Shown in pieces: positions 5,874-30,231 of a stretch of DNA of 30,766 nucleotides (positions are counted from its first letter, which is position 1; the number at the start of each line of letters is the position of its first letter). The translations under genes and the position numbers were made by a program. The notes under the pieces were generated by a model that was not told the origin of the DNA, searched no databases, and saw only the letters and a list, made by a program, of their open reading frames with translations. Source of the DNA: a virus. Taxonomy: Duplodnaviria; Caudoviricetes. The stretch covers positions 1 through 30,766 of the IMG/VR virus record IMGVR_UViG_3300047545_000399; one strand, 5' to 3'.

Positions 5874-5919
5874 AAAATAGTCAAAACACGCTTATGTTTC
5901 TAGGGTGAAAAACCTACCT
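5874..5919 (-). promoter_or_regulatory. Conserved 20-bp motif (copy 1) plus -10-like TATTTT; putative late promoter
   Basis: AGGTAGGTTTTTCACCCTAG at 5900..5919 (minus strand), then 20 nt, then TATTTT. Confidence 0.7.
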
Positions 5920-12352: not shown

Positions 12353-12398
12353 TTTTTACCTTTTCCATAATTGAGCCGCTAGGGTGAAAAACCTACCT
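12353..12398 (-). promoter_or_regulatory. Conserved 20-bp motif (copy 2) plus TAAAAA; putative late promoter
   Basis: AGGTAGGTTTTTCACCCTAG at 12379..12398, overlapping the upstream TAG, then 20 nt, then TAAAAAT. Confidence 0.65.
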
Positions 12399-26581: not shown

Positions 26582-26627
26582 AAAATACCCGCTTGCCCCA
26601 GATGGTTCTAGGGTGAAAAACCTACCT
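26582..26627 (-). promoter_or_regulatory. Conserved 20-bp motif (copy 3) plus -10-like TATTTT; putative late promoter
   Basis: AGGTAGGTTTTTCACCCTAG at 26608..26627, then 20 nt, then TATTTT. Confidence 0.7.
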
Positions 26628-27010
26628 CATGACCAGCGACGTTGGTTCTTTTCTGCCCGACTCATTAAATCTTTGGGAAGCCACTCGTCAAAAATAGCCT
26701 TGGCTTTATTTGCATTGACCTGACCAAACCGAACGCGGATAAACTCGACAAGCCCGTAAACATCGGCTGCCTTGGCCTCAGAGATGCCCTCTCTAATATC
26801 CGTTACTGCATGGCGACCTTTTTGCAGCATCCAGTCTGCAAGGGCCGACGGCATGATCTTATGTTCGTTCATAACCGTTTTAAACGCGTGACACTGGCAT
26901 TTGAATTGCGCCTCTTGGCACGACTCGATGACCTGCACTTCCGGTTTTACCGTTTCGTCGATTATTGTTTTCTTTAAAGTTATGGTGCCGCGTAGTTTTT
27001 GATTGCTCAT
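26627..27010 (-). CDS. Hypothetical protein (CxC motif)
   Basis: ATG at 27010 (MSNQKLRG...). In the reconstructed pre-insertion allele this ATG overlaps the terL stop (ATGA). Confidence 0.7.
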   Translation of the reverse strand: MSNQKLRGTITLKKTIIDETVKPEVQVIESCQEAQFKCQCHAFKTVMNEHKIMPSALADWMLQKGRHAVTDIREGISEAKAADVYGLVEFIRVRFGQVNANKAKAIFDEWLPKDLMSRAEKNQRRWS

Positions 27011-27145
27011 CAAGGGTGTCCGTTAGATTATCCATCTAGTATTAGCGCGGATACCCCTAGCTTTAGCTATGGGGAGGAAGCGCTGCCTTTCTTTGTTTAT
27101 TAAAAAGAATATTTCGCAAGCCTCTTTCGAGTTAGCGCCACTTGC

Positions 27146-27174
27146 TTGACGCGGCCCATAATATTCTATAGACT
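27146..27174 (+). promoter_or_regulatory. Sigma70-type promoter for tnpB (probably leaderless mRNA)
   Basis: TTGACG-N17-TAGACT, with the ATG 7 nt further on and no SD. Confidence 0.6.
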
Positions 27175-27181
27175 GTACAGC

Positions 27182-28246
27182 ATGATAGTTGTTTACAAAT
27201 ACCGAGTCAAGTCCAACGAAAGAACATTGAATAGATGGTCTCGCGCCGTCAACTTCGTGTGGAACTATTCCAACGACAGGCAGAAGGATGCCCTGCGGTT
27301 TGGTCGTCGATGGCTCACCGGATTTGATCTGAACAAACTTACAAGCGGTTCGAGTAAAGAGCTTGGCTTGCATAGCGGCACTGTTAATGCGACTTGTGAG
27401 CAGTACGCCAAGAGCAGAAATCAATTTAAGAAGCCGTACTTGCGATACCGTGGCAAGCGCTCCCTTGGTTGGGTTCCGCTCAAAGGGCGCGACCTCAAAG
27501 CAACCAGTAAAGGCTTTTCGTTTTACGGCACTGAGTTCCGCGTAGCTTTGAGTCGCCCCATTCCTGACGGCGCTGTTGTCAAAGATGGAACTTGCTTCGC
27601 TCAAGACTCGCTCGGCCATTGGTACGTTTGCGTCGTTCTCGAAATTCCCAAGGTAGAACTTCCCGTCAACGATTTGCAAGTCGGTATTGACCTTGGCCTC
27701 AAGGACTTTGCTACTCTGTCCGACGGGGATGTAATTGAAGCGCCAAAGATTTACAGAAAGACCGAAGAGGCGCTTGGCAATGCTCAGCGGGCTAACCATT
27801 TGAAACAAACGAAAAGAATCCACGCTCGAATTGCCGATCAGCGTAAAGACTTTTTGCATAAACTTAGTAGGAAAATTGTCGATAAATACGGCGTTATCGC
27901 CGTGGGCAATGTCAACGCATCTGGTCTGGCTAAGACCAACCTTTCTAAATCCGTCCTTGATGCTGGATGGTCGTCCTTTAGGACAATGTTGCGATACAAA
28001 AGCGAGTACGCGGGTCGCAAATATGCCGAAGTGAACGAAAGATTTACCTCCCAAGTCTGTTCGGATTGTGGCGCTTTGCCCGATTCGAGGCCGAAAGGTA
28101 TCGCAGACCTTGGAATAAGGAAGTGGGCTTGTTGTGAATGTGGCGCTGTGCATGATCGTGATGTAAATGCGGCTCGCAATATTCTATCTAAGTACGTTTC
28201 CGGTCTCGGACATGAGACTCCCGCTGGGGGAATCCCCTGCCTTTAG
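27182..28246 (+). CDS. tnpB: RNA-guided endonuclease TnpB
   Basis: YKYRV, NFVWNY, RuvC-I GIDLG, DFLHKLSR, DAGWSSF, VNERFTSQVCSDC...CCECG zinc finger, RuvC-III HDRDVNAARNI. ATG at 27182 preferred over TTG at 27146. Confidence 0.95.
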   Translation: MIVVYKYRVKSNERTLNRWSRAVNFVWNYSNDRQKDALRFGRRWLTGFDLNKLTSGSSKELGLHSGTVNATCEQYAKSRNQFKKPYLRYRGKRSLGWVPLKGRDLKATSKGFSFYGTEFRVALSRPIPDGAVVKDGTCFAQDSLGHWYVCVVLEIPKVELPVNDLQVGIDLGLKDFATLSDGDVIEAPKIYRKTEEALGNAQRANHLKQTKRIHARIADQRKDFLHKLSRKIVDKYGVIAVGNVNASGLAKTNLSKSVLDAGWSSFRTMLRYKSEYAGRKYAEVNERFTSQVCSDCGALPDSRPKGIADLGIRKWACCECGAVHDRDVNAARNILSKYVSGLGHETPAGGIPCL

Positions 28247-28260
28247 GCATGGGGAGGATG

Positions 28261-30231
28261 TCAAGACTTCATCCTTTGTGCGGCCCTTAATAGCCAGTCG
28301 TTAGCAGTGGCCTTGTTAGCCTCTTGGTTAGTATGTCGCCGCGCCCATGCAGGCGGGTTATCCCATTTGATCGAAGGCGCACCAAGTACGTTATGCACCG
28401 CCAAAGCGTAGACAAACAGAATCCATGCCTCGTTAGCCGCCTTGTCGTTTTTGCGCTCGTAGCCGCTCTTACCGTCCCATCGCATCGACGTTAGCTCAGC
28501 AAAAAATGGCCGGTTCGTTTTGTGCAGCCATTCGGGGAAATGAATATAGTTGGTTCCGTACTCGGTACGGTTGAGCATTTGCTCGAGCTCGTTACCTAGC
28601 CGTGTTACATCGCAAAAGTGAAGGGGCAATAAAGAGCCTTGAGGTACTTTTTCCGACACCTTCGTTACATCGCCGGTCGCTCTACGCTCGCCCTTGCCTA
28701 GCATTAGCCTTGCCAAGAACGGTTTAGTCTCTGCCTTGCTTGCTAAAAATCGGGTAAACGCATAAGCATTACTGGTTGCGTTATCCTTGCCGCCGGTGTC
28801 GATCCAAACCTTGACCGGCAGTAACCCATCATAAGATCGAGTAAAGACTTTTACTAAGTCCTCCCAATCTTCGGTGTGAGTAAAGGGTGACATTCTTAGC
28901 CGCTTACCATCCATGCCGGACCGGTGTGACTCGCTCATGTTGTACCGATCAATCAACCACGTCTCGCGGTTTTTACCAAAGCCCACGATCTGGATAACAA
29001 AGCGATTTATCTGCTGATCGATGGTTGCCACTAAAAACTCCACGCCGGCCGGCACCACGCCACGCTCGAACGCCTCAACCCGTTCCTCAATCGCGCCCTG
29101 ATCCCTTGCGTCTTCGGGCTTTGGAGGTAAGAACGGTCTGCCATGATCCGTGTTGACTACAAGCTTCCAGTCATTCATTGCCCGCTCACGGTCGAACGTT
29201 TTCAAAGATTCATAAGTGGCAATGGCAGAATCTGTTTTCTGCAAGAGCGAAGCCCACGATTGATAAGCCGCTGCCGGCCCCTCCATCCAATAGCTAGACC
29301 ATCGCGGATTGTTTACAGGGCCATCATCTGCAACCCATGTGCAGCCAATGTTAAGCATTTGTTTTTGTGACTCATCGATAAACGCACCGCAGACCTCACA
29401 CACTAATTGCGGTTGACCGTCAACCATCTTGAGGAATTCCATGTCTGGCCGAGTAAGCGACTGGCAATGCGGGCACGTCCAGTAAAGCTTTTTCCGGTCG
29501 CCCTGATTGTAGTATTTGCAAAGACCCTCGGTCGGCGGGATTTCATGCTTGGTAACAAGTCCGGCATTTAGCCTGGCCTCCCACTCGATCAGGTTCACTT
29601 CAAAGCCGGGTGATGTTTCTGCAATGCACTTGCCGCTAGACTTACTCGTCGTGGTTCGCTTGAGTCCCATCAGGAACTTTGACCCCTCGCCCTCAACGTC
29701 GTCGTCTCGTCGGTCATAATCAGGGAAAACTACCTTCTGAAAAGCATCGCCCGACAATTGAGACGCGGCGTGCCACCCAAACCGGATCAACTGGCCATTT
29801 CTTAATATCTTTTCGTGGATCGAGTCGTCGTCGGCACGCAAGCTGATCTTTGCTTTTAACTCGGGACTGGCTTTGACCATGCGCGGGAATCTAATCTTGC
29901 CAAACCGTCTTGCTCGGTCTTCGGTGGGCTCGCTTATAAGTACGTCACCGCCTCCGGTGTACATTTGATGCGCTAGGACCGTCTCAGTCAACCCAGCGGT
30001 CTTTCCGCTACGTGCAGGTCCAACAAAGATTACAGCCTCAACACGCCGGTCTGTAACGTCTCGCTGGGGCTGTTTCATGTAAGGGGTTAGATCAGGGTTA
30101 TACCGAATCGTCGTTGCGCCATCTCCAGCGATAAACACGTGTTCCTTGGCTACCTCTGTAACGCCCATGCGCAAAGGTGGCTTTAAGCCCTCTAGCAGTT
30201 CAAGTGCTAGTTCTCTAGGGCTCAGGTACAT
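28261..30231 (-). CDS. terL: Terminase large subunit, lambda gpA family
   Basis: Walker A GPARSGKT, TPYM, DYDR, ETSPG, CPHC/CEVC zinc motif, ATIDQQ nuclease motif, NEAW. Confidence 0.95.
   Translation of the reverse strand: MYLSPRELALELLEGLKPPLRMGVTEVAKEHVFIAGDGATTIRYNPDLTPYMKQPQRDVTDRRVEAVIFVGPARSGKTAGLTETVLAHQMYTGGGDVLISEPTEDRARRFGKIRFPRMVKASPELKAKISLRADDDSIHEKILRNGQLIRFGWHAASQLSGDAFQKVVFPDYDRRDDDVEGEGSKFLMGLKRTTTSKSSGKCIAETSPGFEVNLIEWEARLNAGLVTKHEIPPTEGLCKYYNQGDRKKLYWTCPHCQSLTRPDMEFLKMVDGQPQLVCEVCGAFIDESQKQMLNIGCTWVADDGPVNNPRWSSYWMEGPAAAYQSWASLLQKTDSAIATYESLKTFDRERAMNDWKLVVNTDHGRPFLPPKPEDARDQGAIEERVEAFERGVVPAGVEFLVATIDQQINRFVIQIVGFGKNRETWLIDRYNMSESHRSGMDGKRLRMSPFTHTEDWEDLVKVFTRSYDGLLPVKVWIDTGGKDNATSNAYAFTRFLASKAETKPFLARLMLGKGERRATGDVTKVSEKVPQGSLLPLHFCDVTRLGNELEQMLNRTEYGTNYIHFPEWLHKTNRPFFAELTSMRWDGKSGYERKNDKAANEAWILFVYALAVHNVLGAPSIKWDNPPAWARRHTNQEANKATANDWLLRAAQRMKS

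Follow-up and report, generated by a model that had tools for sequence, protein, structure and literature searches.

TnpB-only elements of the IS200/IS605 family of insertion sequences (IS) are known from IS605B-1_MA, IS605B-1_HM and their relatives, in which tnpB is the sole gene, the ends form hairpins, no target is duplicated and mobilisation occurs in trans; they insert directly ahead of ATGA (published target N/ATGA) and carry a TT terminus on the other side (PMC4810608). In IS608, the right guide GAAT goes with the cleavage site TCAA, and a left guide tetranucleotide, AAAG for TTAC, lies 5' of a subterminal hairpin behind a linker of 15 nt (PMC5934647, PMC3201880). The TnpB proteins of ISDra2 and ISGst work with an omegaRNA that overlaps the tnpB 3' end and the right end of the element, forms a pseudoknot near its 3' end and takes its guide from the flank, and their transposon-associated motif (TAM) equals the left target (PMC8612924, PMC10097598, bioRxiv 2023.03.14.532601). 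Here we describe a 1,254-bp element at positions 27011-28264 of the phage record IMGVR_UViG_3300047545_000399, where it lies antisense at the junction between the stop codon of the terminase gene terL and the start codon of the next gene, which encodes 127 amino acids. The window that we analysed is the complete virus record of 30,766 bases, which is about 41% complete. We consider it probable that the element is a TnpB-only IS200/IS605 insertion behind TCAT, between positions 27010 and 27011, likely made by a host transposase, and that its TnpB would cut only those empty copies of the site that keep both TCAT and the exact terL end.

Judged by its sequence, the element belongs to the IS1341 or IS605B type of TnpB-only IS200/IS605 elements. 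As in other members of this class, its gene encodes OrfB_IS605 and zinc-finger domains, and tnpA is absent. The subterminal hairpins are preceded by guide tetranucleotides that fit the cleavage sites, GATA with TCAT on the left and GAAT with TCAA on the right, under a guide/cleavage-site rule that includes a pair at the fourth base. The right pair is shared with IS608, whereas the left pair, a left linker of 39 nt and the lack of tnpA set the element apart from it. The earlier note on this DNA had predicted TCAT at 27007-27010 from the left guide and had remarked on the long distance to the hairpin, and both points are borne out by the sequence. The comparison with other copies covered contigs from four metagenome runs (X1 and X2 are one sample, possibly the window's own source; X3 is from a different study; X4 is the fourth) and a wider set of 58 related loci, 53 of them full-length, which hold 38 distinct elements including the window copy; for four regions from a plasmid collection without annotation, the DNA alone was used. 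In named genomes, the closest matches to the element show 55-66% identity, and almost all come from Betaproteobacteria. Read at the element ends, copies in runs X1-X4 sit at other sites, with different left and right flanks, and copies 92-95% identical to that of the window likewise have other flanks. Insertion 3' of a fixed tetranucleotide and without target duplication is indicated by element-free contigs of matching length, described below, and by TCAT ahead of 19 of the 20 left ends recognised among the 58 loci scanned (three being the window copy or duplicates). The element is not an IStron, in which a sense group I intron lies inside a host gene: an Rfam search returned nothing above threshold (HgcC scored 18.9 bits against a threshold of 50 bits), the element is antisense, and 171 nt separate the left cut from the tnpB start. 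In runs X1 and X2, a contig aligned on 27040-27074 shares this left end; TCAA comes straight after it, then 11 nt, then TTAT, then another left end. This is likely a mini-element beside another IS605-type element in the same sample.

The right end of the element at 28264 is well defined. Behind this position, contigs continue into other flanks in all four runs (one contig each in X1 and X2, three in X3 and four in X4), and an alignment of 14 elements shows conservation as far as GTCAA and none beyond. The positions assigned to four helices can pair in 97% of 308 cells, and 13 of the 22 pairs show double changes, a result matched in none of 500 shuffles; pairing was 81.5% in the shuffles and 36-53% when the helices were slid, controls that favour the structure, as the helices were read from the same 14-element alignment. 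In the pseudoknot, a feature also of the ISDra2 omegaRNA (PMC10097598), a double change occurs at one of five pairs, in three of the 14 sequences. Folding of the whole 200-nt omegaRNA window gave a z-score of only -1.0, so the support for an omegaRNA is covariation. Taken together, right-end conservation and structure place the start of the guide very likely at 28265, and the earlier note's reading of a guide that begins there, in the terL 3' end, is thus supported by the stop in conservation and the divergence of flanks at 28264. A guide of 16 nt, taken from the flank, is known for ISDra2 (PMC8612924). A search of the window for TCAT followed by up to six mismatches in 16 positions found no further guide targets.

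The tnpB gene most likely starts at ATG 27182, which gives the same length as in its homologs; TTG 27146 was considered as a start and is disfavoured by the homologs. In an alignment with TnpB from the PDB, G242 occupies the position of the ISDra2 RuvC-II glutamate, and E286 that of an ISDra2 proline. Both residues are invariant in 14 of 14 homologs and lie 44 residues apart. The protein thus lacks the RuvC-II glutamate of canonical TnpB1 and has instead the glycine and the conserved glutamate about 45 residues downstream that mark the rearranged TnpB2/RIIr-5 class, to which TvTnpB belongs; a tested member of this class cleaves DNA without collateral activity (PMC10530073, PMC10691335). We liken the protein to that class by these residues, and TvTnpB differs in its TAM, NTGAC, and in being accompanied by tnpA. 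The predicted structure is weak (mean predicted local distance difference test score, pLDDT, 65.6); its best match is the TnpB structure 8H1J. These data suggest a candidate nuclease of the rearranged RuvC-II type that shares the omegaRNA organisation of ISDra2 and ISGst, with a predicted TAM equal to its left target, but differs from both in the replaced glutamate and in a TAM that would be 4 nt long. A literature search found no paper on a TnpB with TCAT.

The fit of the element to its site is close. Excision of 27011-28264 leaves terL ending in M-K-S-stop, its stop codon forming an ATGA overlap with the start of the following gene, and with the element in place TerL also ends in MKS, as the earlier note had pointed out. 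The reverse complements of TCAT and TCAA are ATGA and TTGA, so an antisense insertion at any ATGA overlap keeps the start codon, returns a TGA and leaves the last codon unchanged apart from its third base; given a TCAT target and a TCAA end, the neat placement is therefore a generic consequence. Among related insertions, 11 of 16 target ATGs open at least 100 codons, where background TCATs do so in 129 of 503 cases; of the right-end TGAs, 6 of 14 close at least 100 codons, the background being 45 of 503. Such an excess would be expected if junction insertions are those that survive. An element inserting at ATGA inside a phage gene has been reported (PMC11237433), while no publication was found, judged by title or the start of the abstract, on a TnpB element at a phage terminase junction. 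The four TerL relatives whose ends were checked finish in MK (649 of 655 residues identical, 99%), MKR, MKR and MR; with the window included, the terminal residue varies between serine, arginine and none. TerL is likely unchanged by the insertion; this part of the earlier note holds as the simplest reading, although the exact parent allele was not found. The downstream gene fares differently. Without the element, AAGGA stands 7 nt ahead of the next ATG; the insertion puts 1.25 kb between the two, and the 127-aa gene thereby loses its ribosome-binding site.

At the left end, the window copy is unusual. Close copies part from the window at 27039 and carry TCAT (X4) or TTAT (X1, X2) 14 nt ahead of the GATA guide, so that alignment of other copies, which fixed the right end as the earlier note had foreseen, placed the usual left boundary at 27036 and not at 27011. 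At 27037-38, too, the window has bases unlike those of close copies. It offers CCAT at 27032-35 in the usual position (14 nt), TTAT at 27028-31 (18 nt) and TCAT at 39 nt. The extension at 27011-27038 occurs among viral contigs only in one twin contig, and no second copy of it was found in the window. It can pair with the GATA guide and the hairpin foot (27012-27058), with an inner 5-bp hairpin at 27024-38, although this may be chance; such pairing could make the guide inaccessible to TnpA at the DNA level and mask the start region in the mRNA. The extension is likely captured flank from cleavage at a more distant TCAT, a process shown at a right end, with flexible spacing, by published work (bioRxiv 10.1101/2023.03.14.532601). 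The coordinates of all features are collected in Table 1.

Table 1. Features of the terL junction and of the inserted element in the window
Feature	Position	Strand	Basis or remark
terL, lambda gpA type, 656 aa	28261..30231	-	Pfam/PHROG match; stop codon and last base of the Ser codon supplied by the TCAA end of the element
127-aa gene, no known family, between terL and gpW	26627..27010	-	Start codon inside the target
TCAT target, inferred TAM	27007..27010	+	Reverse complement is ATGA with the start codon of the 127-aa gene
Left-end extension, window copy only	27011..27038	+	Exceeds the usual boundary (27036) by 25 nt; 3 further bases changed
Shared left end: guide GATA 27050-27053, hairpin 27054-27074	27039..27074	+	Sequence; other copies
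Reverse frame, codon-aligned with tnpB	27023..28183	-	First ATG 28153; 376 aa; TAA 27023-25
tnpB, 354 aa	27182..28246	+	Pfam search, PF01385 and PF07282; C4 zinc finger; D170, G242, E286, D327
omegaRNA scaffold 3' part and right end	28202..28264	+	Stems 28202-19 and 28220-29; pseudoknot 28209-13 with 28258-62
Right guide GAAT; hairpin; terminal TCAA	28230-28233; 28234-28254; 28261-28264	+	Sequence
Predicted omegaRNA guide, ~16 nt, antisense to the last terL codons	28265..28280	+	Conservation boundary

Given the right end at 28264, the omegaRNA-type structure, a TCAT that precedes left ends throughout the clade and the absence of a Y1 transposase from the record, the following course of events can be proposed. 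A host TnpA would paste a single-stranded circle 3' of TCAT, keeping the start codon and returning the TGA; insertions inside packaging genes would be lost, and the survivors would be those at junctions. In the history of this copy, the donor may have carried a non-cognate CCAT at the usual boundary, so that the cut fell at TCAT 25 nt further out and the flank was carried along. TnpB, with E286 as an alternative catalytic residue, would load an omegaRNA ending in the terL-derived guide and cut the excision joint or an exact element-free sibling, and recombination would then restore or spread the element, while relatives with a different last terL codon would escape. More tentatively, the downstream gene, deprived of AAGGA, may be reached by ribosomes that cross the element in a stop-free reverse frame and restart.

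This last step bears on an alternative account of how the insertion is tolerated, in which ribosomes translate the reverse frame as far as the left end and pass there to the downstream gene, whose product would continue to be made, with no early end to transcription. Reverse-stop codons (TTA, CTA and TCA) number one in tnpB against 12.1 expected, compared with 282 against 247 in 12 phage genes of the window, and the 38 distinct elements hold 64 reverse-frame stops against 343 expected. Flanking open reading frames (ORFs) hold 119 against 291, so the model overshoots, and about half of the deficit may reflect host codon bias because these ORFs are also depleted. The deficit is nevertheless codon-specific: TCA makes up 3% of its box, against 10% for ACA, 17% for CCA and 16% for GCA; CTA stands at 3% against 11% for GTA; and TTA at 8% against 44% for CAA and 52% for GAA. 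In 26 of the 38 elements codons 1-325 are free of reverse stops, and an AT-rich element has 2 against 19. Three elements with 9-10 stops are undepleted, which counts against the account; these relatives (L044, L082/L083 and L098), in which no left end was recognised, may have been released from constraint. When left ends were placed without regard to frame, the TGA of the target proved to share the aligned frame at 14 of 16 sites, uninterrupted by a stop over 93-501 nt, and a Shine-Dalgarno (SD)-like motif occurs at 12 of the 16; these sites are related, which makes the binomial p of 1e-5 too optimistic. The left ends of L030, L035-L037, L042, L069, L085, L095 and L106 carry GGAG on the reverse strand a few bases ahead of the target ATG. 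This is possibly a built-in ribosome-binding site, and it is absent from the usual left end of the window element.

For the window copy itself the evidence is less favourable to ribosome crossing. No SD-like site precedes the first three reverse-frame starts, here or in most relatives, and the TTG that overlaps the terL stop is in frame but meets TAG after 26 codons. The usual boundary is in frame, 150 nt ahead of the tnpB start, and because it reads CCAT the frame continues to the TAA listed in Table 1, which precedes the start codon of the 127-aa gene by 12 nt and is in frame with it. This TAA falls inside a predicted mRNA hairpin that also covers the start region (z-score -2.47, 4 of 200 shuffles), although the hairpin was chosen after the fact. 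The reverse-frame product has no Pfam or PHROG match, and in the twin contig (L001) a 1-nt deletion ends the frame inside the left hairpin. This deletion, near window position 27079, is the only difference between twin and window in 6.5 kb; it may be an error or a variant, and metagenome contigs agree with the window. Altogether, the clade appears to maintain an open reverse frame at the sequence level, and the frame looks degraded in the window copy. Ribosome crossing with continued production of the downstream gene is a possibility that we hold tentatively, as rather unlikely. A full-text search, which left subscription journals largely outside, found no published account of a maintained stop-free reverse frame, and the passages on IS605B (PMC4810608) link ATGA neither to stop/start overlaps nor to an open reverse frame.

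A broader and doubtful extension of this idea would treat the whole TnpB clade as a transposon readable in both directions that lands harmlessly in operons, through its ATGA target, its returned stop and a reverse frame that selection would hold open for ribosome crossing and restart. It would then be a splicing-free counterpart of the IStrons (PMC10690162), which, like phage homing endonucleases (PMC13565253), limit the harm that a selfish nuclease element does to host genes; the window element differs in having no intron and in lying antisense between genes, so that any limitation of harm would be translational rather than by splicing. In the window copy, the 25 nt of captured flank would shift ribosome transfer to a stop codon that precedes the start codon by 12 nt and lies inside a start-hiding hairpin opened by the ribosome, and the variable last terL codon would represent escape from the guide. 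That codon may equally reflect drift, three alleles only being known.

The earlier note had also proposed that TnpB cuts IS-free alleles in related or co-infecting phages, like a homing element, and had asked for an IS-free relative with GCTCAT joined to GACTTC. Two element-free contigs were found in X3, about 89-90% identical to the window on the left flank and exactly 1,254 nt shorter, in agreement with the length of the predicted empty site; where the flanks meet, four letters are replaced in one contig and one in the other, the stop and start codons overlap by 4 nt without spacer, and terL ends in M-K-R-stop. The exact junction itself was not found. Cutting of transposon-less alleles is a published property of TnpB (PMC8612924; bioRxiv 2023.03.14.532601), TnpB can drive an IS through plasmid populations (PMC11870625), and a review table includes co-infecting phages among target classes (PMC13565253). 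Gene and scaffold look intact here, and from guide positions 3-4 onward the guide matches the X3 empty contigs over 20-37 letters (85% setting). However, one of the two contigs mismatches guide positions 1-2, and the other has TCAC and mismatches at positions 1-3; in ISDra2, double mismatches in positions 1-12 abolish cleavage (PMC10097598). The 99% TerL relative ends in MK, so that, as far as its protein tells, its first guide bases differ too; a single substitution at guide position 1 would explain the missing serine in this presumably element-free relative. Moreover, the filled junction occurs only in the window and one twin contig, with no sign of spread into divergent backgrounds, and the 127-aa gene together with the left-end motif was found among viral contigs in the twin alone. 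Cutting of related phages beyond exact siblings is thus unsupported because, in a thin sampling, both sequenced empty alleles mismatch the guide start, and active homing among related or co-infecting phages appears unlikely. TnpB most likely guards against excision and cuts exact siblings only. Among 26 distant TerL loci (33-37% identity) no 127-aa-gene homolog was found, so these are uninformative on the junction. A degenerate version of the junction had 20 matches in metagenomes, none of which stood with TerL, gpW or the 127-aa gene (tblastn), so that we take them for chance matches.

Several observations weigh against the insertion as we read it, most of them at the left boundary. The linkers of 16 distinct sites of relatives 56-69% identical measure 11-18 nt, and the 39-nt linker is far outside this range; the pattern used to find left ends recognised the hairpin in only 20 of 58 loci (a stricter first pattern matched none of the 58); and another copy, from what may be the source sample, is preceded by TTAT. 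The exact empty junction has no match in the viral contig collection, the joint was not found in runs X1 and X2, and both element-free contigs are only about 90% identical to the window. No Y1 transposase was found in the record, of which a large part is missing, and tnpA may sit elsewhere in the phage. In the structure prediction, pLDDT is below 50 at residues 286-289, and E286 is assigned to the active site on the strength of published models. Accordingly, the left cut might instead lie at TTAT (between 27031 and 27032) or at CCAT (between 27035 and 27036), in which case the 21-25 bases towards 27011 would belong to the phage, as a spacer that separates terL from the next gene. The resulting linkers of 18 or 14 nt would agree with the clade and with the 14 nt of close copies, and a TTAT cut, with which the divergence of the empty contigs is compatible, would also give a TerL ending in MKS (with a TAA stop) and GGA 8 nt ahead of the next ATG. 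On the other hand, both element-free contigs have the 4-nt overlap and no spacer, and their matching length supports a left cut between 27010 and 27011. A CCAT cut is further disfavoured because the parent TerL would then end in WII, as none of the four relatives does, and with the differences at 27037-38 neither cut yields the usual left end. We regard a left cut at TTAT or CCAT as improbable. An immobile relic, with TnpB dead or unexpressed and an extended left end no longer excisable, would be in keeping with the missing canonical glutamate, the lack of a transposase in the record and the mRNA-strand pairing of the extension noted above, but is equally hard to credit beside an intact ORF whose G242/E286 pair is conserved in all 14 homologs and matches an active class, and beside the 92-95% identical copies with other flanks. 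The confidence that we place in these alternatives overlaps and does not sum to one.

In contrast to the published IS605B elements, the insertion lies in a phage head-packaging region and its left end is 25 nt longer. The minus strand carries nearly all genes of the window (terS, terL, the 127-aa gene, gpW, portal, protease, capsid and tail genes), with tnpB on the plus strand between terL and the 127-aa gene. Lambda-type head modules usually go from terL directly into gpW. Two homologs of the 127-aa protein were found, at 99% and 59%, and the ESM Atlas gave no usable match for it. A 51-aa ORF lies at 26880-27035. The stretch occurs in freshwater and algae metagenome runs. A 20-nt motif is present in three exact copies (5900-5919, 12379-12398 and 26608-26627; none expected by chance), each of which coincides with or closely follows the stop codon of a minus-strand gene (endolysin, a 738-aa gene and the 127-aa gene), and outside the window it was seen in the twin contig only. 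It is a candidate late promoter or RNA-processing site; as a promoter, the copy just past the 127-aa gene may confine any polarity to that gene alone. Scans for promoters and terminators remained at chance level (2 against 1.9 and 2 against 2.7, respectively), and the terminator scan found no terminator-like site on the minus strand. The promoter-like matches are 27210-27182 on the minus strand (10/12, towards the 127-aa gene) and 27146-27174 on the plus strand (9/12, ahead of tnpB).

As an event, the insertion is ordinary: the target, the guide logic and the cutting of empty alleles have all been published, and the fit to the junction follows from two tetranucleotides. What the locus adds is a candidate TnpB with a rearranged active site, for which TCAT is inferred as the TAM, a naturally occurring left end with likely flank capture, and natural empty alleles suited to testing guide escape. 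Less expected by specialists would be that a reverse frame is kept free of stops and ends on the start codon of the target. If this frame is translated, it would explain how such elements persist in tight phage operons without splicing.

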